From Candidatus Aminicenantes bacterium (GTDB lineage Bacteria > Acidobacteriota > Aminicenantia > Aminicenantales > Aminicenantaceae): a stretch of 47,017 bases of DNA. A model generated the notes under the pieces. That model had not been told where the DNA came from and did no database searches. It saw only the letters and a list, made by a program, of their open reading frames with translations. Shown piece after piece: positions 9,080-36,258 of this stretch (positions are counted from its first letter, which is position 1; each line of letters starts with the position of its first letter). The position numbers and the translations under genes are program-made. The stretch lies in NCBI GenBank assembly GCA_023133225.1, contig JAGLWV010000116.1, forward strand, positions 1 to 47,017, given 5' to 3'.

Positions 9080-9562
9080 TTATTCCAGGATTTCAGCGGC
9101 TTTTTTGGAGAGGGGCATTCTTCTTTTTATAAACTCAGAGGAATCCGGCGTTAAGAGTTCTTTTATTTCAAGGTATTTTCTTTTGCCCTTTCCTGTGATC
9201 TTCTTCTCTTTTACCTTATCCCATGGGATAAATTTCATATGAAACAGAATTCCATCAGAGCCTATATAACCATTCCATCTGGGGGTAAAGACTAATAAAA
9301 AGATGAGGATCAAAAGCCTGAAGTAGCCGGAGTTGGATTCTGGTTCTGAAAAGATCTGATACATGCACCACAGGAAATAAGCAAACAGGACAGGAAACAC
9401 AAACCAGTTAAAAGGAAAATTAAAATTGTAGAATGAAGACCAGCTTGCCTGTATCTTCCCCAGGGATTTCTTTTTAATCTTTAAGCTCCACAGGTTAAAA
9501 AGAAAAAAGGCAAAGGCCAGGAAGAATAAGACAAGGTAAGCGGCAATAATAAAAGCACTCAT
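9080..9562 (-). CDS. Small integral membrane protein (about 3 TM helices plus a basic C-terminal domain), function unknown
   Basis: 160-aa ORF. Its ATG overlaps the upstream stop by 4 nt (ATGA), which implies translational coupling with the CxxC lipoprotein gene. It has three hydrophobic segments followed by a K-rich soluble tail. Confidence 0.6.
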   Translation of the reverse strand: MSAFIIAAYLVLFFLAFAFFLFNLWSLKIKKKSLGKIQASWSSFYNFNFPFNWFVFPVLFAYFLWCMYQIFSEPESNSGYFRLLILIFLLVFTPRWNGYIGSDGILFHMKFIPWDKVKEKKITGKGKRKYLEIKELLTPDSSEFIKRRMPLSKKAAEILE

Positions 9563-10095
9563 TTATCCCCCTCCCTCAATTTTCCTGAATCATTAAAAAA
9601 ATTGAGTATCTCCTTTTTTTGCTTCTCGTTTAAAGGGAAAACATATTTTTTTAAAATTCTATTCTCCCGCTCAAAAAGTAGAATAGCTGCACCCTTCTTA
9701 GAAAATATCTTAAAGCCATGGGAATGGTCAAGGACAATCGGACATGTAATGTTATTAGCCTTGAAAAATCCTCTGGACTTCTTCTCAACAATCCTGCGGT
9801 AGACCTCTCTCCTTTCTTTTTCCTCAGGATTGTCATAAACGATAATTCCCCAGACCATATTCTCTCGAGACGGATAAGGCAAAAATTGGTAAAAATCAAG
9901 AAAAGAATTCAGACAGGGAGAGCATATAAGATTATCATATTTGACTATGAAAAGGACAAGCTTATCGGACGGGAGGAATTCTAAGGGTCTATTTTGCAGG
10001 CCAGTTGTGTTTCCTAAGCAACTGAAAAAAAGTAAAATTAACACCGTACTAAAACAACGGTGAATTCGAAATTTCTTTTCATAAAATTGGCTCAT
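9559..10095 (-). CDS. TlpA/redoxin-like thiol-disulfide oxidoreductase lipoprotein (CxxC)
   Basis: 178-aa ORF with a lipobox-like signal (VLILLFFSC). It shows thioredoxin-fold hallmarks: a beta-strand followed by CSPC (LVLFIVKYDNLICSPC), then CPIVLD ... AAILLFERENRILKKY, resembling the TlpA/ResA pattern. Confidence 0.6.
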   Translation of the reverse strand: MSQFYEKKFRIHRCFSTVLILLFFSCLGNTTGLQNRPLEFLPSDKLVLFIVKYDNLICSPCLNSFLDFYQFLPYPSRENMVWGIIVYDNPEEKERREVYRRIVEKKSRGFFKANNITCPIVLDHSHGFKIFSKKGAAILLFERENRILKKYVFPLNEKQKKEILNFFNDSGKLREGDK

Positions 10096-10108: not shown

Positions 10109-11128
10109 TTATCTATTGATATAATTCACCTTGTATTTTTTTAAAGTTACTCCTTCATTGGCTCTTGAATAAAGATAATCCTGACCATCTATGTATATGC
10201 AGTGACTCCAGTCAGGGAGGGTAAAAGTGGCTAACAGCTTGCCTTCGGAGCTGAGAACATACACATCCTGGCTGGGATTTTTCGAAAAACTTCCACCAAG
10301 GACAAACACATGTCCTTTGCTGTTCAGAGCAATATCTTTATAGGCGAACCCAGAGGGAAGCAAAAAATTATGCACTTTTTTCTTTTTGACTTTTTTTATG
10401 TCCAGTAACCCCTTTGACCATATCTTTTTCCCCTCAGGATTTATTTTTTCGATCTTATCCTGGTGACAGTAAGCAAGATAGAGATAGCCCTGAGGATCAA
10501 ATTGAATCTCTACCGTATCCATCATCAAAGGAGTTTTTTTATCTGCATATTCGATCTCACGGGTAATCTCTCCTTTTGAATTATAAATAAAAATCTTTCT
10601 CCCCTTCGTGAAGTCCATTGAGAGTGTGGAGACCGCAATCTCAGAATCAGAAATGACCTTAAAATCGCTTACAGGAATAAGAATCGGTATTTTGTTTTTG
10701 TAAGTCAGATCTTTGTCAAAAACTTGAATTCCAAAAATATTTTGATCTGAGACATAGAGAAAATGCTCCGAGCTGTCTATAAATCTGGGAGCCAAAAATT
10801 CACCCGGACCCCGTCCCTTTCGGCCGGTCTTTTTAACAAGGTTTCCCCGTTCATCAAAAATTTTTATCGAATAATCCATGGCATCCGTGACATAAATACG
10901 TTTACTGGAATCTGCAACAATCCCCACCAACATGAACAGATCATCATCATCCAAACTGCCGATGGAAAGGACTTCCTCCAGAGAGATTTTAAGACGGTCT
11001 TTTCCCCACATGAACACAACAAGCGAACAAAGAACACCTATCAGAAGTAAAGCTTCAAACAGGCGTATTATGCCCCTTCTTCGAGCTCTGGTGAATGTAT
11101 TAAGCGATCTTTTCCTTAAAAGTTTCAT
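10109..11128 (-). CDS. Six-bladed beta-propeller protein (NHL/TolB-like), N-terminal membrane anchor
   Basis: The ORF is open from a GTG at 11146. The ATG at 11128 is preceded by AAGGAGGG. It has an N-terminal TM helix followed by about six repeats of the type hydrophobic-YV-S/T-D ... I.VFD..G (RIYVTDAMDYSIKIFDERGN, FLYVSDQNIFGIQVFDKD, KIFIYNSKGE, YLYLAYCHQDKIEKINPEGK, HVFVLGG...VYVLSSEGK). Confidence 0.7.
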   Translation of the reverse strand: MKLLRKRSLNTFTRARRRGIIRLFEALLLIGVLCSLVVFMWGKDRLKISLEEVLSIGSLDDDDLFMLVGIVADSSKRIYVTDAMDYSIKIFDERGNLVKKTGRKGRGPGEFLAPRFIDSSEHFLYVSDQNIFGIQVFDKDLTYKNKIPILIPVSDFKVISDSEIAVSTLSMDFTKGRKIFIYNSKGEITREIEYADKKTPLMMDTVEIQFDPQGYLYLAYCHQDKIEKINPEGKKIWSKGLLDIKKVKKKKVHNFLLPSGFAYKDIALNSKGHVFVLGGSFSKNPSQDVYVLSSEGKLLATFTLPDWSHCIYIDGQDYLYSRANEGVTLKKYKVNYINR

Positions 11129-11150
11129 GCTCCACCCTCCTTTCACTTAT

Positions 11151-11182: not shown

Positions 11183-11365
11183 CATTTATCTTCAATAATA
11201 TCAATTGGCTGTATTGCGTTCTATAATATATGACGGCTCAAATGGAATTTTTTCTCAAAGAGAGGGACATTCCCCAAAGTACCAGCCTTTGAATATGATC
11301 TCGTGAAGGATGGCACTTTAAGGGAATGTCCCTTCCTACTTGAACTTTTCCTGATGAAAACGTCC

Positions 11366-11635
11366 CTATTTTTCCGGGAGGTGCTTCTCGACATACTTTT
11401 TGCAAAAAACCCAGCCGTAAGCACAATAAATTACTTTTTGAGGATCCAGAATAATAAGTATCAGGTTGTCCCCCAGACACTCCATGAAGGCCTCCCCGCA
11501 ACTTCTATATTCTTCTTCTCCTTCTTCTGCAGTGAGAAGAACTAAATCTACGCTCATCAAAAGCATAAAAAAAGCTAACAGGAGTGCCACTTTTTTCGTG
11601 TTCTTTTGAATTTTTAAAACCACTTTTACCTCCAT
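11366..11635 (-). CDS. Secreted/anchored 4-Cys mini-protein, paralog B
   Basis: 89-aa ORF; an alternative GTG four codons downstream is preceded by GGAGG. It has a hydrophobic N-terminal signal/anchor (KKVALLLAFFMLLMSVDLVLL). It shares two motifs with the upstream mini-protein: SCGEAFMECLGD and CAYGWVFCKKYV. Confidence 0.6.
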   Translation of the reverse strand: MEVKVVLKIQKNTKKVALLLAFFMLLMSVDLVLLTAEEGEEEYRSCGEAFMECLGDNLILIILDPQKVIYCAYGWVFCKKYVEKHLPEK

Positions 11636-11678
11636 TTGTTCATAAGTTACGTTTAGTCTCTTTTCCTATAAACCTTCA

Positions 11679-11990
11679 TTAAATCTTCACATATCTCATA
11701 CAAAAATCAAAACCAATCGCGCAGCCACTCATTGCAGCTACTCCAACTGCAATCCCGGCTGCAGCTCCAGTAAATATCGCTACCAATCCGCCAATTAGTC
11801 CTCCAGCAAATCCTGCAATACCGGCTAAAACCGCGCTAACGCCCGCATCGATCGTGCATTCAACTAAAGCATCTAAACATGGATTTTTTCCTGCTGACAG
11901 GTGATGGGGAGCTACAAAGAGGAAGAAAACCAATACTGCTAAAGCTGCAGCCATAATTCTCTTTCCCTTGTTTCTTTTTAAATCTTTCAT
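11679..11990 (-). CDS. Secreted 4-Cys glycine-zipper mini-protein, paralog A (microcin/class II bacteriocin-like composition)
   Basis: I chose the ATG at 11990 because AAGGAGG lies 6 nt upstream and the longer ORF to 12047 would swallow the sigma54 promoter. The 103-aa product has a Sec signal (MKDLKRNKGKRIMAAALAVLVFFLFVAPHHLSA). The mature part of about 70 aa contains PCLDALVEC, a 44-aa Gly/Ala zipper (AGIAGFAGGLIGGLVAIFTGAAAGIAVGVAAMSG) and CAIGFDFCMRYV. Confidence 0.65.
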   Translation of the reverse strand: MKDLKRNKGKRIMAAALAVLVFFLFVAPHHLSAGKNPCLDALVECTIDAGVSAVLAGIAGFAGGLIGGLVAIFTGAAAGIAVGVAAMSGCAIGFDFCMRYVKI

Positions 11991-12015
11991 TTTTAACCTC
12001 CTTTCATCTTTAAGA

Positions 12016-12030
12016 GCAAATTCTGTGCCA
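12016..12030 (-). promoter_or_regulatory. Sigma54 (RpoN) -24/-12 promoter
   Basis: The minus strand reads TGGCAC-AGAAT-TTGC(T), an exact match to TGGCAC-N5-TTGC. The C of TTGC is 26 nt upstream of the ATG at 11990. Caveat: the predicted transcript start near 12004 leaves only a leader of about 14 nt that begins at the RBS. Confidence 0.6.
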
Positions 12031-12069: not shown

Positions 12070-12184
12070 TAAATAAAGATAGAAAATCTCTGTGCTTGCT
12101 AAAAATACTTTGAATTAAAAGCGGATGTCACACTTTTCCCTGAGCTTTCTCTTTCTTTAATTATTACAATAACTTAGGAGAGGT

Positions 12185-12206
12185 TGTCACGGCACAAAGT
12201 GTGACA
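12185..12206. promoter_or_regulatory. Candidate enhancer-binding-protein site (UAS): TGTCAC-N10-GTGACA
   Basis: A perfect 6-bp dyad with a 10-nt spacer (TGT-N10-ACA class) lies about 165 nt upstream of the -24 element. A related half-site ATGTCACACTTT (12125-12136) is the exact inverted repeat of AAAGTGTGACAT (12196-12207). Confidence 0.45.
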
Positions 12207-12620: not shown

Positions 12621-14306
12621 TTATTTTGATGAGCCCATCATGGGCACTTTTAATCCCTTTTTCCCGGCAAACTGAATCGCTTCATCATATCCAGCATCGG
12701 CATGGCGAGCCACACCTAAGCCAGGGTCAACCGTTAGAACTCTTTCCAATCTCTTCTCAGCAGAGGCCTGACCGTCTGCAACGATGACCATCCCGGCATG
12801 GATGGAAAGACCGATACCCACTCCGCCTCCGTGATGCACGGAAATCCAGGAAGCACCACATATTGCGTTTAAAAGAGCATTAAGTATCGGCCAATCAGCA
12901 ATAGCATCAGAACCGTCCTTCATCCCTTCTGTCTCTCTGTTTGGCGAAGCAACCGAACCCGCATCCAGATGATCCCGGCCGATAACAATGGGGGCGCTGA
13001 TCTTTCCTTTTTTCACAAAATGATTGATAACTGCGCCAAAACGTGCTCTCTCCCCATAGCCGAGCCAGCAAATTCGAGAGGGAAGCCCCTGGAATTTCAC
13101 GTGTTTTTGGGCTTTTCTTATCCATCTCTCCAGAGCTTTATCTTCGGGGAATTCTTTAAGCACAGCTTCGTCGGTTAAATAGATATCCTCGGGTTTCCCT
13201 GAAAGTGCTGCCCATCGGAAAGGGCCCTTGCCGTAGCAAAAAAGTGGCCGGATGTATTCAGAGACAAAACCTGGAACATCAAAGGCATTTTCAACACCGG
13301 CCTTCTGAGCCTGGCCCCGGATATTGTTTCCATAATCAAAGGCTTTCGCGCCTCTTTTCTGCAGTTCGATCATGGCTTCCATATGTACAGCCATGGAATG
13401 ATAGGCTCTCTTGATATAATCTTCAGGATCTTCTCTTCGAAGCCTCAGGGCTTTTTCATACGGGATGTCATGGGGAACATAACCATTCAGCTCATCATGG
13501 GCCGATGTCTGGTCGGTTAAAACATCAGGAGTAATTCCCCGCCTGACAAACTCGGGAAGGATATCAGCCGCATTACCAAGAAGGGCAATGGACAGTGCCT
13601 TCTCCTTCTTTTTTGCATCAAAGGCAAGCTCCAAAGCCTCATCCAAATCATTCACCATGGTATCCACATACTTTGTCTCAAGCCGTCTCTGTATTCTATC
13701 TTTATCAACTTCGATGACTACAGCAACTCCCTCATTCATGGTCACAGCCAGAGGCTGAGCGCCCCCCATGCCCCCCAATCCTGCAGTTAGAACTAATCTT
13801 CCTTTCAGAGTCCCGCCAAAATGGGCTTGGGCAACAGAGGCCAGGGTTTCGTATGTTCCCTGAAGAATTCCCTGAGTGCCTATGTAAATCCAGCTACCTG
13901 CCGTCATCTGGCCGTACATAGTCAGTCCTTTGGCTTCAAGCCTGCGGAATTCATCCCAGGTTGCCCATTTGGGAACAATCATAGAATTGACAATCAGCAC
14001 TCGAGGAGCTTCAGGATGAGTCTCAAACACTGCCACCGGTTTTCCGGACTGGACGACTAATGTCTCGTCATTCTCGAGTTCCCTTAAGCTCTTCACAATA
14101 GCCTGAAAACATTCCCAGTTTCGGGCTGCTTTGCCTGTTCCGCCGTAAACAATAAGCTCCTCTGGTTTTTCCCCGACTTCAGGATCCAGGTTATTCATCA
14201 GCATCCTTAGTGCACCTTCCTGGGACCATCCTTTTGTTTGAAGCTGAGTGCCTCGAGGAGCTCTTATTTCCTTGTAATCATAATCTCTCTGGATTGCCAT
14301 AACCAC
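12621..14306 (-). CDS. hutU: Urocanate hydratase
   Basis: 561-aa ORF with full-length resemblance to urocanase (IRAPRGT...[45 protein letters not shown]). A GAGGAGGTGG RBS precedes the start. Confidence 0.95.
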
Positions 14307-14415: not shown

Positions 14416-16314
14416 TTATTCTATCCCTAACTCATCAATGATAAGTTTTACATAATTTTCCCTGGGAGTTATCAAGGAATAAAAATCATCTTTGATCTTC
14501 TTCACATATTCCTCAAAAAAGGTGAAATCATCCTGGTTGCTCCAGTTTTCCGTACTTAATTTTTCAAGAACCTCCTTGATGATATCCTTGTTCACAATCT
14601 CTATAGTGCATTCGGGAAGAGTGCCGGATTTTTCCTCTATCATCTTGCTGCTTCTCGAAAAAATATCTCGCAGGTCCTCTTGATATCTTATAATTTCCTG
14701 CTTCACAAAAAATTGATCTTTTGGAGATTCTGTCTGAGAAAGCTTTGTGTAAAGCTTCTTTCCTTCCTCTAAGTGACCGCTCAAGGTAGAAATGAGGCGT
14801 TCACTATCCAGGACAATTCTCTCCTTATTCTGATAATAGATAATGCCATTCTCATCATCTGGGGGATCGGTTTTTCGGTAATCCTTCAGAGGTTCATAAA
14901 CTTCCATGGATTCTTCGATTCCCGCTTCCTCTTTTTCTTCTGTTACCGGCATTTCCTCGGGTGGCTCTATAGTTATTGTATCTGATGTCTCATCCATCGC
15001 TTCCTGAAAACTGACTCCCTCTGCACCTTCCTCTTCTCCCTTTACTTCTTCCTTCTCAACTTCTTCTTTCTTCGGTAGTGTGCCCTTCAGTAAATCTTCA
15101 GCCTTGATTCTGATCGTCTCATCCATCGCTTCCAAAGGACTGATCTCTTCCTCGATTTTAAATTCCTCTTTTTCCGGTTCCTCCTCAGGTTTCTCTGTAT
15201 CCACCGTCATTGTCGTCTCATCCATCGCTTCCTGAAAACTGACTCCCTTTGCACCTTCCTCTTCTCCCTTTACTTCTTCCTTCTCAACTTCTTCTTCCTT
15301 TGGTAGTGTGCCCCTCATTAAATCTTCAGCTTTGATTTTAATCGTCTCGTCCATCGCTTCTAATGGACTGATCTCTTCCTCGACTATAAATTCCTCTTTT
15401 TCTGACACTTCCTTAGGTTCCTCTGCAGCCATAGTCTTTGTCGTCTCGTCCATTGCTTCTGAAAGGCTGACTTCTCCCTCCATTTTCTCCTCTGCTTCTG
15501 GAGGCTTCTCCTCTAGAGCCTCTTCCATTTCTTTCTCGGATAGCGGGGCTTCTATGTCTTCATCCTTTTCTTCCATCTCAAAATGAACATCATCACTTCC
15601 GGCTCTTTCTTCCTCGCTGATTCCAACTGTTTCTTCAGTCACCCCTGAAATAGGTGTGACTTCCTCTTTAGTTTCCTCTCCTATTGCTGTTTCCTCTCCT
15701 ACAATTTCAATTTCATCCTCTATACCAAACACATCCTTAATTTTTTTTACCTTTGCCAGGTCTTGCCCAAGGTCAACTCTCACCTCTTCTTGTTCAGCAC
15801 TTTCTGGAATCCAAGCCGGAGTCTCTGATTTTTCTTCAACTTTTTTTTTAATAGAGGATATTTTACTATCGGCCTCTTGATTGAATTCCTCCAACTTCTG
15901 GCTCAACTCGCTCACTTTCTTGAGTTCTTCGAGTGTTTGTCCAGTGATTGTCTTGAATTCTCTTTGGAATTGATTGGCCTTGTTGAGAAATTCATCTATA
16001 TTGCTTTTAAGATCTTCCCTTTTACGCTCATACTCGGCAATCAAATTCATGTAATTTACCCGGGATTCTTCATCCCCGGATTCCTTCTGCACTGGGTCTA
16101 TCTCCTTTATTTCTTCCTTTACTTCTTCCTTTATTTCTTTCTTTATTTCTTCCTTCTTTTCTTTCTTCTTTTCTTCCTTTCCCACCTGTTTGCCCTTTTC
16201 TTCAATTTCCTTCTCTATTTCCTCTTCTTTCCTGGCCAGTGCATCCTTTAATTTATTTTCAATATCCTCAATACTAAGGGGAGCTTTTTTCTTACTATTT
16301 TTATCTTTTGGCAT
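14416..16314 (-). CDS. Highly acidic Glu/Lys-rich repeat protein with a conserved-looking C-terminal globular domain, function unknown
   Basis: 632-aa ORF with a GAAGGAG RBS and its own sigma70-type promoter. It has an N-terminal K/E coiled-coil-like region, five copies of the [LQ]EAMDET motif within 76-aa tandem repeats, and a non-repetitive C-terminal region of about 170 aa. Confidence 0.7.
   Translation of the reverse strand: MPKDKNSKKKAPLSIEDIENKLKDALARKEEEIEKEIEEKGKQVGKEEKKKEKKEEIKKEIKEEVKEEIKEIDPVQKESGDEESRVNYMNLIAEYERKREDLKSNIDEFLNKANQFQREFKTITGQTLEELKKVSELSQKLEEFNQEADSKISSIKKKVEEKSETPAWIPESAEQEEVRVDLGQDLAKVKKIKDVFGIEDEIEIVGEETAIGEETKEEVTPISGVTEETVGISEEERAGSDDVHFEMEEKDEDIEAPLSEKEMEEALEEKPPEAEEKMEGEVSLSEAMDETTKTMAAEEPKEVSEKEEFIVEEEISPLEAMDETIKIKAEDLMRGTLPKEEEVEKEEVKGEEEGAKGVSFQEAMDETTMTVDTEKPEEEPEKEEFKIEEEISPLEAMDETIRIKAEDLLKGTLPKKEEVEKEEVKGEEEGAEGVSFQEAMDETSDTITIEPPEEMPVTEEKEEAGIEESMEVYEPLKDYRKTDPPDDENGIIYYQNKERIVLDSERLISTLSGHLEEGKKLYTKLSQTESPKDQFFVKQEIIRYQEDLRDIFSRSSKMIEEKSGTLPECTIEIVNKDIIKEVLEKLSTENWSNQDDFTFFEEYVKKIKDDFYSLITPRENYVKLIIDELGIE
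14990..15482. repeat. Intragenic 228-nt (76-aa) tandem repeat, about 2.2 copies
   Basis: Copies start at 14990, 15218 and 15446 (tcatccatcgcttcctgaaaactgactccc...). Copies 1 and 2 are near identical. Each unit contains two EAMDET-encoding sub-motifs. Confidence 0.85.
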
Positions 16315-36021: not shown

Positions 36022-36258
36022 ATGCCATCAAAAGGTTATGTTGAAATTTCTGTTGAAAGCTGTAAAGGATGTAATTTTTGTGTGATCCACTGTCCCACCG
36101 AGTGTTTGGCGCTTAACACCTCTGATACAAATAGCTACGGCTTACACTACGCCTACCTGACTGATGAGGAGAAATGTATTGCCTGTCAAAACTGTGCAGT
36201 AATCTGTCCGGATGCGGCAATTACGGTCTATAAAAAGGCGAAGAAAAAGGCGGCTTAA
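36022..36258 (+). CDS. 2x[4Fe-4S] ferredoxin (delta subunit of 2-oxoacid:ferredoxin oxidoreductase)
   Basis: 78-aa ORF with two CxxCxxCxxxCP motifs (CKGCNFCVIHCP, CIACQNCAVICP). It lies immediately upstream of the OFOR alpha subunit. Confidence 0.85.
   Translation: MPSKGYVEISVESCKGCNFCVIHCPTECLALNTSDTNSYGLHYAYLTDEEKCIACQNCAVICPDAAITVYKKAKKKAA

Follow-up and report, generated by a model that had tools for sequence, protein, structure and literature searches.

Twin-CX6C mini-proteins encoded beside an NHL propeller in Aminicenantes: a candidate envelope redox module

Two adjacent small genes, A and B, lie on the minus strand of a contig from Candidatus Aminicenantes bacterium, and each encodes a mini-protein with two CX6C cysteine pairs. 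Are these proteins related, and what would a bacterium use such a pair for? The stretch analyzed, called the window below, comprises 47,017 nt (NCBI GenBank assembly GCA_023133225.1, contig JAGLWV010000116.1, positions 1 to 47,017 of the forward strand); all coordinates refer to it. A preliminary description, made from the sequence alone, had placed a hypervariable core between the conserved cysteines and had likened the pair to diversifying secreted effectors, toxins and bacteriocins. The present analysis assigns A and B to an undescribed protein family, named twin-CX6C, which is encoded upstream of an NHL beta-propeller gene and usually together with a gene for an exported CxxC protein. With moderate confidence, these products are read as an envelope redox module in which A and B are clients or small subunits.

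Genes A and B and the twin-CX6C family

Gene A (11679..11990, minus strand) encodes 103 aa. A signal peptide of aa 1-33 (11892-11990) is predicted to be cut after LSA, leaving a mature protein of ~70 aa. It consists of motif 1, CLDALVEC (11856-11879), a Gly/Ala-rich hydrophobic core of 44 aa (11724-11855) and motif 2, CAIGFDFC (11700-11723), followed by the tail MRYVKI. Gene B (11366..11623, minus strand) has the same plan, with a signal peptide of ~aa 1-32, a predicted cut after LTA, motif 1 CGEAFMEC (11477-11500), a core of 17 aa (11426-11476), motif 2 CAYGWVFC (11402-11425) and the tail KKYVEKHLPEK. In both N-termini, a lysine-rich n-region and a hydrophobic h-region lead to an AxA-like site ahead of the C-x6-C ... 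C-x6-C framework.

Translation of A begins with the Met at 11990 (MKDLK...), a start found in 15 of 16 homologue clusters. A ribosome-binding site (RBS), AGGAGG (11997..12002, minus strand), lies 6 nt ahead of this ATG. The RBS and the homologue starts show that the six-frame open reading frame (ORF), which runs to 12047, is too long, as the preliminary description had suspected; the extension is non-coding and holds a sigma-54 type promoter. For B, the most likely start is the GTG at 11623, which has a GGAGG 5 nt upstream and is homologous to the ATG of other lineages; it yields 85 aa, while an ATG at 11635 would yield 89 aa. The two neighbouring mini-proteins, their translations and shared motifs stand as first described, and the motif coordinates bear out core lengths of 44 and 17 aa. 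The expectation that automatic annotation would miss such genes proved wrong, for public gene callers already include both as unnamed 'hypothetical protein' entries.

A regular-expression search of the window in six frames found the specific A and B motifs in these two ORFs only, and a bare twin-CX6C expression additionally matched three unrelated stretches. A bare match at 36070-36207 (plus strand), CNFCVIHCP...CIACQNCAVIC, resembles a common 2x[4Fe-4S] cluster of ferredoxin-type Cys and is unrelated to A and B.

Pairwise BLASTP aligns A and B over the C-terminal 13 residues (E 8e-4). The ortholog sets are narrow, with 16 clusters for A and 12 for B. A comparison of the two ortholog profiles gave 94.7 % probability and E 6e-8, spanning the signal peptide and both motifs. 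The hhalign comparison of mature regions in related genomes, 68 of A-type against 68 of B-type and all without signal peptides, gave 98.8 % probability and E 9e-17. Because the profile comparisons of ortholog sets and of mature regions match, A and B are taken to be paralogs from an ancient tandem duplication.

A search of 1.84 billion representative proteins with a merged A and B profile yielded at least 159 clusters (50 % identity) at E <= 1e-3, and all 150 family matches listed are 65-130 aa long. The C-x6-C ... C-x6-C framework is kept in 147 of 148 newly fetched members, a stricter motif in 145. In an alignment of 77 diverse members, only C38, C45, C90, G93 and C97 are invariant, that is, the four Cys and a Gly three residues past Cys3; a Tyr three residues past Cys4 is conserved in at least 90 %. 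All four Cys are likewise invariant among the orthologs of gene A. The A-type consensus reads C-x-x-A-l-x-k-C-x-x-d-A ... y-x-x-g-C-l-x-G-Y-x-f-C-l-k-Y, the B-type consensus C-E-x-A-f-x-x-C-x-x-d ... y-C-x-x-G-Y-x-F-C-K-K-Y-I. Degenerate members occur: a B-type protein (1900-2160 of locus L046) has Phe in place of Cys3, and the database match P0295 lacks Cys1 and Cys4.

Related loci were collected by a scan with the propeller profile, one genome per species, and number 78 with 1.23 Mb in total. The window and 74 of these loci hold 143 syntenic family genes as detected by regular expression. The preliminary description had left open whether further paralogs exist and keep the Cys framework; profile search and related loci answer both points positively. 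A usable start codon is present in 141 of the genes, nearly all of these with a strong RBS, and AGGAGG plus ATG stand at the equivalent place in 95. A heuristic scan recognized a Sec-type signal (K/R n-region, hydrophobic h-region, small residues at -3/-1 located 0-10 residues before Cys1) in 138 of the 141. Both proteins are thus predicted to be exported by Sec-type signal peptides that are substrates of signal peptidase I.

Scans of Pfam, NCBIfam and PADLOC assigned neither A nor B to a family, and the 77 diverse members gave no Pfam family match, glycine-zipper families included. The family profile found nothing significant among PDB sequences. Literature searches on twin CX6C, on DUF5128/PF17170 and on Aminicenantes with beta-propeller returned no relevant paper, and ten members looked up in public records are all named 'hypothetical protein'. 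Twin-CX6C is an undescribed family, so far met only in loci of Aminicenantes type.

Predicted hairpin, core and evolutionary rate

AlphaFold2 models, both with a predicted local distance difference test score (pLDDT) of ~65, show in A the signal helix, a helix at 37-67, a turn at 68 and a helix at 69-100. In B, helices are placed at 36-50, 54-59 and 61-81, and the helices carry both motifs. Cysteines at i and i+7 with a small residue at i+3, Ala in motif 1 and the invariant Gly in motif 2, occupy one helix face at a-d-a' heptad positions. The mature scaffold is interpreted as a helical hairpin whose two arms each bear Cys-Ala/Gly-Cys along a single face. If the two Cys faces pack antiparallel, C1 lies opposite C4 and C2 opposite C3, so two inter-helix disulfide staples, C1-C4 and C2-C3, would result.

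Small helix-turn-helix proteins stapled by disulfides are known: the CHCH proteins with twin CX9C (Cox17, Mic19), the small Tims with twin CX3C, the plant alpha-hairpinins and the scorpion kappa-hefutoxins (CX3C...CX3C). The predicted twin-CX6C fold resembles them in its two Cys per helix on the same face, in two probable inter-helix disulfides stapling an antiparallel hairpin, and in folding in an oxidizing compartment outside the cytoplasm proper. It differs in the i, i+7 spacing with Ala/Gly at i+3 (CX6C, not CX9C, in 147/148), in being bacterial, Sec-exported and encoded as an A/B pair, and in a connector that may be a long hydrophobic hairpin. Similarity to these proteins is absent in sequence and in Foldseek, where the B model gave nothing significant and met a Mic60-Mic19 chain (7pv0) at E 8 only.

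A-type cores fall into length classes of 21-23 (52/68), 29-30, 37-38 and 44 aa, separated by steps of ~7-8 aa, one helical turn per arm. Their single Pro shifts from position 12-13 to 16, 20 and 22, always at 0.54-0.62 of the core length. The length steps and the constant relative Pro position are as expected of hairpin arms growing in register. The window's A has the longest core; Kyte-Doolittle windows of 19 residues reach at least 1.6 over most of ~40 residues, and this core might, as a hairpin, insert into a membrane or traverse it. Hydrophobicity in B peaks at 1.35, and its core is loop-like and contains Pro. A reading of A as a two-pass membrane protein in general was rejected, since most A cores have 22 aa.

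The glycine zipper ascribed to A in the preliminary description is present in the window's protein, which is rich in GxxxG/AxxxG, but it is not a general trait, as the 52 of 68 A-types with cores of 21-23 aa indicate. The core usually measures 22 aa, and its lengthening to a 44-aa zipper is specific to this lineage. None of the Pfam glycine-zipper families (Gly-zipper_Omp, Gly-zipper_YMGG, Rick_17kDa_Anti etc.) matched gene A even at E <= 10; the best Pfam matches in that test were C19orf12 (E 0.84) and DUF6861 (E 1.1). Nor does 'hypervariable' describe the cores. Within subfamilies xxDA at the start, a G-P turn at mid-point and Y..G before Cys3 are kept, and core positions carry 1.9-3.4 bits compared with 2.2-3.8 bits for non-Cys motif positions, which makes the cores somewhat less conserved than the motifs.

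The ratio of nonsynonymous to synonymous substitution rates (dN/dS) was determined for the window lineage from the window and two close relatives at dS ~0.15. It amounts to 0.74-0.92 for A and 0.85-0.92 for B, and to 0.11-0.31 for eight of nine neighbouring genes, including those of the propeller and the CxxC protein. The ninth neighbour, an unannotated ORF of 632 aa (14416-16314, minus strand) between hutU and prmC, has 0.51, measured against the close relative L002; it has no Pfam match at E <= 0.001. Amino-acid change in A and B proceeds ~4x faster than in the neighbours, and in A the signal peptide is almost invariant and the mature part variable. This near-neutral rate, seen in three sequences, could result from selection that is either relaxed or diversifying. 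In other lineages, 17 close pairs gave median dN/dS values of 0.31 (A), 0.41 (B), 0.18 (propeller) and 0.19 (CxxC protein). The family overall is under purifying selection and evolves 1.4-1.9 times faster than its partner. Positive selection on a hypervariable core was rejected as a general property on account of these ratios and the subfamily conservation. The idea of diversifying proteins is compatible with the fast change in the window lineage, but not with the purifying selection in the 17 pairs elsewhere.

The conserved gene module and its promoter

Downstream of B lies the gene of an NHL six-bladed beta-propeller with an N-terminal membrane anchor (10109..11146, minus strand). It matches Pfam DUF5128 with E 2e-10 (40.7 bits, cut-off 22.9); the true start is likely the ATG at 11128, giving 339 aa. 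TRIM-NHL structures in PDB were matched with E 1e-27 to 1e-11, and NHLRC2 was absent at E <= 0.01. The blade signature GxGPGEFxxPR is conserved. An sHCiyiD block holds H315-C316, with C316 kept in 63 of 68 propellers and the His in at least 95 %. A free thiol such as C316 is unusual in an exported protein; it might exchange thiols with A and B or with the CxxC protein.

The CxxC protein (9559..10095, minus strand) has 178 aa and the motif CSPC; its signal (LFFSC) is probably that of a lipoprotein. Both Cys of the motif, C58 and C61, are invariant, the residues between them vary (CSPC, CFSC, CLSC and others), and P119, D123 and P154 are conserved in at least 90 %; one conserved Pro is of the type found in the cis-Pro loop of thioredoxins. 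Matches to thioredoxin folds comprise StoA (3erw, E 0.005) and 2cvb (E 1.3). Among 30 members, AhpC-TSA was met in three and Redoxin in one, all under the Pfam cut-offs. The protein is weakly suggested to be a divergent thioredoxin-fold candidate.

Twin-CX6C genes were found on the same strand within ~700 nt upstream of the propeller in 74 of the 78 loci, as two genes in 68; in the four others the contig ends at that edge. The order is invariably A-type then B-type, with spacers mostly of 10-30 nt. A single twin-CX6C gene precedes the propeller in L074, L076 and L078. The CxxC gene follows the propeller immediately in 57 of 78 loci, with an NHL-CxxC gap of 13 nt, and the divergent database match P0263 shows the same five-gene arrangement. 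Directly upstream of the module, the urocanate hydratase gene hutU (window 12621-14306, minus strand) is present in 45 of the 78 loci (within L006-L083), and the glutamyl-tRNA synthetase gene gltX further upstream in 37. Synteny with these housekeeping genes extends across the class. The main locus is a vertically inherited position of the core chromosome.

The complete genome CP070825.1 contains at least three modules. Extra paralogous A-B-propeller modules within one genome were seen as L004/L014 and L005/L018 (CP070825.1), and also as L007, L011-L015, L019 and L021. The extra modules form a distinct subfamily with an A core of 38 aa and a B core of 20 aa, lacking both the CxxC gene and the sigma-54 promoter. 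Many related contigs (L008-L011, L015, L019 and others) are titled 'uncultured Eubacteriales' or 'uncultured Clostridia', labels that are probably placeholders. Propellers of metagenome-assembled genomes so labelled are 33-61 % identical to the window's, the same range as in named Aminicenantes assemblies, and accompany the same module.

Upstream of gene A, TGGCACAGAATTTGCT (12015..12030, minus strand) presents the -24 GG and -12 GC of a sigma-54 type promoter. TGGCAC-N5-TTGCT just ahead of the RBS is conserved in the window, in two close relatives and in locus L003, which is 60-67 % identical to the window in protein. Of 74 loci, 48 have the form TGGCA[CT]-N5-TTGC[AT] ahead of the A-type start, about 42 nt away (39-46 nt, with three outliers at 55-68), and 53 have it when TGGTAT variants are allowed; strict matches on both strands of the whole 1.23 Mb number only 57. 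By its sequence, the element is a canonical sigma-54 consensus promoter. Putative half-sites for an enhancer-binding protein, TGTCAC/GTGACA, lie at 12126-12131, 12185-12190 and 12201-12206, ~100 and 160-176 nt upstream of the promoter. The conserved blocks ATGTCACACTTTGTG and GTGTGACAT (TGTCACA/TGTGACA) are common to the window and L003 and occupy the same positions in ~8 loci; they are putative enhancer sites. No gene for an enhancer-binding protein, as judged by GAFTGA or Walker A, was found in the window, and a generic scan for sigma-70 promoters and terminators around the locus was uninformative.

Two further elements belong to the operon. The spacer of 219 nt that separates B from the propeller gene has a minimum free energy of -61.9 kcal/mol (z -4.2) and contains a long, stable RNA stem-loop (11260..11337, minus strand; GGGACAUUCCC...GGGAAUGUCCC). 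This stem-loop is kept in the closest relatives, L001 and L002, and not in L003; a short block past it, TTTGAGAAAA.AT...CGTCAT, is more widely conserved. The stem-loop could be an attenuator or a processing site that yields more A and B than propeller. Rfam and tRNA scans of the window returned nothing. At the distal end, a gene for a membrane protein of 160 aa (9080..9562, minus strand) with a weak match to DUF5673 (pleckstrin homology-like) has a start that overlaps the stop of the CxxC gene. It is present in 12 of 78 loci only and is therefore an accessory part.

Envelope redox module and rival explanations

Observed directly are the homology of A and B, their export signals, the conserved Cys, the linkage of the genes and the promoter. 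The strongest among them are the obligatory linkage of A, B and the NHL propeller, usually with the CxxC protein, the export of all products and the invariant Cys framework. In the proposed mechanism, the sigma-54 promoter would drive A and B together with the membrane-anchored propeller and the exported CxxC protein. After removal of the signal peptides, the mature proteins of ~36-70 aa would fold as two antiparallel helices, and the C1-C4 and C2-C3 disulfides would staple the hairpin base. The connector would be a short loop in B and a hydrophobic helical extension in A, both arms lengthening together; the arms of the window's A, with ~22 residues each and rich in glycine zipper, may be long enough to enter or span the membrane. 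The CxxC protein, with the propeller, would set the thiol/disulfide state of A and B, as in NHLRC2 and SOQ1. Through putative physical interactions, A and B would serve as dedicated clients or small subunits of an envelope module.

Gene linkage, export and Cys framework, together with the precedent of NHLRC2 and SOQ1, are the grounds for a split thioredoxin-NHL reading. NHLRC2 (PMC6107167) and SOQ1 (10.1101/2021.03.16.435614) unite a thioredoxin-like domain and an NHL propeller in one polypeptide and place the redox motif where the two domains meet. For SOQ1, the target of its thiol chemistry is a small client protein in the lumen (bioRxiv 10.1101/2024.11.01.621559). The Aminicenantes module likewise sets a CxxC-type domain, TlpA/DsbE-like in the precedents, beside an NHL propeller in an extracytoplasmic-type compartment. 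It differs by separate genes instead of a fusion, by C-x-x-C with variable x instead of CC(I/V)NC, and by a propeller whose best matches are TRIM-NHL, with no DsbD-like C-terminal domain. Bacterial NHLRC2 homologues have been reported without conserved neighbours (PMC6107167), whereas the present module has an invariable pair of small partners.

Several points weigh against the envelope redox module. The AlphaFold2 models are of low confidence (pLDDT ~65), the disulfides are predictions, and the thioredoxin fold of the CxxC protein is suggested by weak matches, all below the Pfam cut-offs. The propeller is nearer in sequence to TRIM-NHL domains than to NHLRC2, so that the parallel with SOQ1 and NHLRC2 is one of architectural analogy, not orthology. 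The extra paralogous loci do without the CxxC gene and the sigma-54 promoter, and the near-neutral dN/dS in the window lineage is unusual for obligate subunits. A more specific version is possible at most tentatively: the operon as a natural 'split' thioredoxin-NHL machine with heterodimeric, redox-gated, stapled-hairpin clients, one of them membrane-inserting, in a sigma-54-driven and hitherto unrecognized envelope redox or stress system of Aminicenantes.

Class II two-peptide bacteriocins, Sec-dependent bacteriocins and the loci of disulfide-containing bacteriocins with a thiol-oxidoreductase accessory are known systems to which the operon can be compared. PedC is the disulfide accessory of pediocin-like bacteriocins, and thiol oxidoreductases occur in bacteroidetocin loci. 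By this analogy, A and B would be a Sec-dependent two-peptide bacteriocin or membrane-active toxin released to permeabilize competitors, the CxxC protein a disulfide-forming accessory and the small membrane protein the immunity factor. Two small, co-transcribed, signal-bearing and Cys-stapled hydrophobic peptides agree with it, as do a core in A that is rich in GxxxG/AxxxG and has a hydrophobicity of at least 1.6 over ~40 residues, the rapid amino-acid change in the window lineage beside an almost invariant A signal peptide, and the thiol-oxidoreductase-like gene within the operon.

This explanation is nonetheless unlikely. The leaders are of Sec type with AxA-like sites, not of the double-glycine type, and a Sec signal in a diderm delivers to the periplasm only. 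Among the 78 loci no ABC (ATP-binding cassette) or C39 exporter gene family and no outer-membrane export gene recurs, and the candidate immunity gene, that of the 160-aa membrane protein, is confined to 12. Unlike patchy bacteriocin islands, the module is class-wide, vertically inherited at a conserved chromosomal site (hutU in 45 loci, gltX in 37) and equipped with a sigma-54 promoter. An NHL propeller, invariable here, plays no part in known bacteriocin systems. Most A cores have 22 aa, B cores are not membrane-like, and in other lineages dN/dS amounts to 0.31 (A) and 0.41 (B). The preliminary idea of a secreted effector, toxin or bacteriocin thus survives in the secreted type with its Cys framework, but a bacteriocin or toxin identity finds poor support where an exporter and a regular immunity gene are missing.

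Decidedly unlikely is a role of A and B as periplasmic metal-binding hairpins in which the four Cys ligate Cu, Zn or Fe, while the CxxC protein would be a reductase of the TlpA/ResA type that keeps them reduced, by analogy with TlpA-ScoI/CoxB. The four invariant Cys gathered at the hairpin base are compatible with ligation, and the best structure-database match of the CxxC protein is StoA, a reductive extracytoplasmic oxidoreductase. The host lineage is described as anaerobic, which would limit spontaneous oxidation. However, judged from known structures, an i, i+7 placement of Cys in a helix, with a small residue in between, has the geometry of a helix-helix staple and differs from that of common metal knuckles. 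The residues adjoining the Cys include no conserved His, Met or Asp ligand, and the 78 loci have no recurrent gene for metal transport or for a chaperone.

The methylamine dehydrogenase set consists of the MauB propeller, the Cys-rich light chain MauA, the thioredoxin-like MauD and the membrane protein MauE. All four kinds of product, jointly made for the periplasm, have counterparts here: a propeller, small exported Cys-rich proteins, the CxxC protein and sometimes a small membrane protein. A and B could accordingly be light subunits of a propeller enzyme with a cofactor derived from conserved aromatics, for which the aromatic residue after the invariant Gly of motif 2 and the near-invariant Tyr past Cys4 would be candidates. 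This is very improbable. F, Y, W and H all occur at the aromatic positions, which leaves no fixed cofactor residue, and the quinone-cofactor light-chain reading was rejected for this reason. A conserved Trp pair is lacking, and no cofactor-maturation gene (MauG-like haem protein, radical SAM, flavoprotein) recurs in the 78 loci. The propeller is of the six-bladed NHL type related to non-enzymatic TRIM-NHL domains, not seven-bladed. The small proteins are predicted helical hairpins, one of them hydrophobic, and neither a hydrophobic core as in A nor such rapid sequence change is typical of catalytic light chains. Chance resemblance of two non-coding or unrelated short ORFs, to which the pairwise BLASTP alignment of 13 residues could point, has a negligible probability and is refuted by profile E values of 6e-8 and 9e-17, 143 syntenic genes, 159 clusters and dN/dS <1 in 17 pairs.

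For the envelope redox module, the protein family and the conserved operon are new, while the stapled helical hairpin as a fold class and the partnership of thioredoxin and NHL domains have precedents. If the split-machine version were true, a bacterial thioredoxin-NHL module would have in the twin-CX6C proteins its first genetically defined partners or substrates, and the mitochondrial twin-CXnC fold would gain a new counterpart in bacteria.

Aminicenantes are abundant, uncultured bacteria of sediments and the subsurface, for which, to our knowledge, few lineage-specific gene systems have been described. The analysis defines for them a class-wide, probably sigma-54-driven four-gene envelope module whose two smallest products form a new family of simple architecture, a predicted twin-CX6C stapled hairpin. 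With the profiles, ~160 clusters of mini-proteins now called 'hypothetical' can be named. The cooperation between thioredoxin-like and NHL-propeller parts is an unsettled question for human NHLRC2 (FINCA disease), taken up only recently for plant SOQ1; the module may offer a bacterial setting, with candidate clients, in which to study it.

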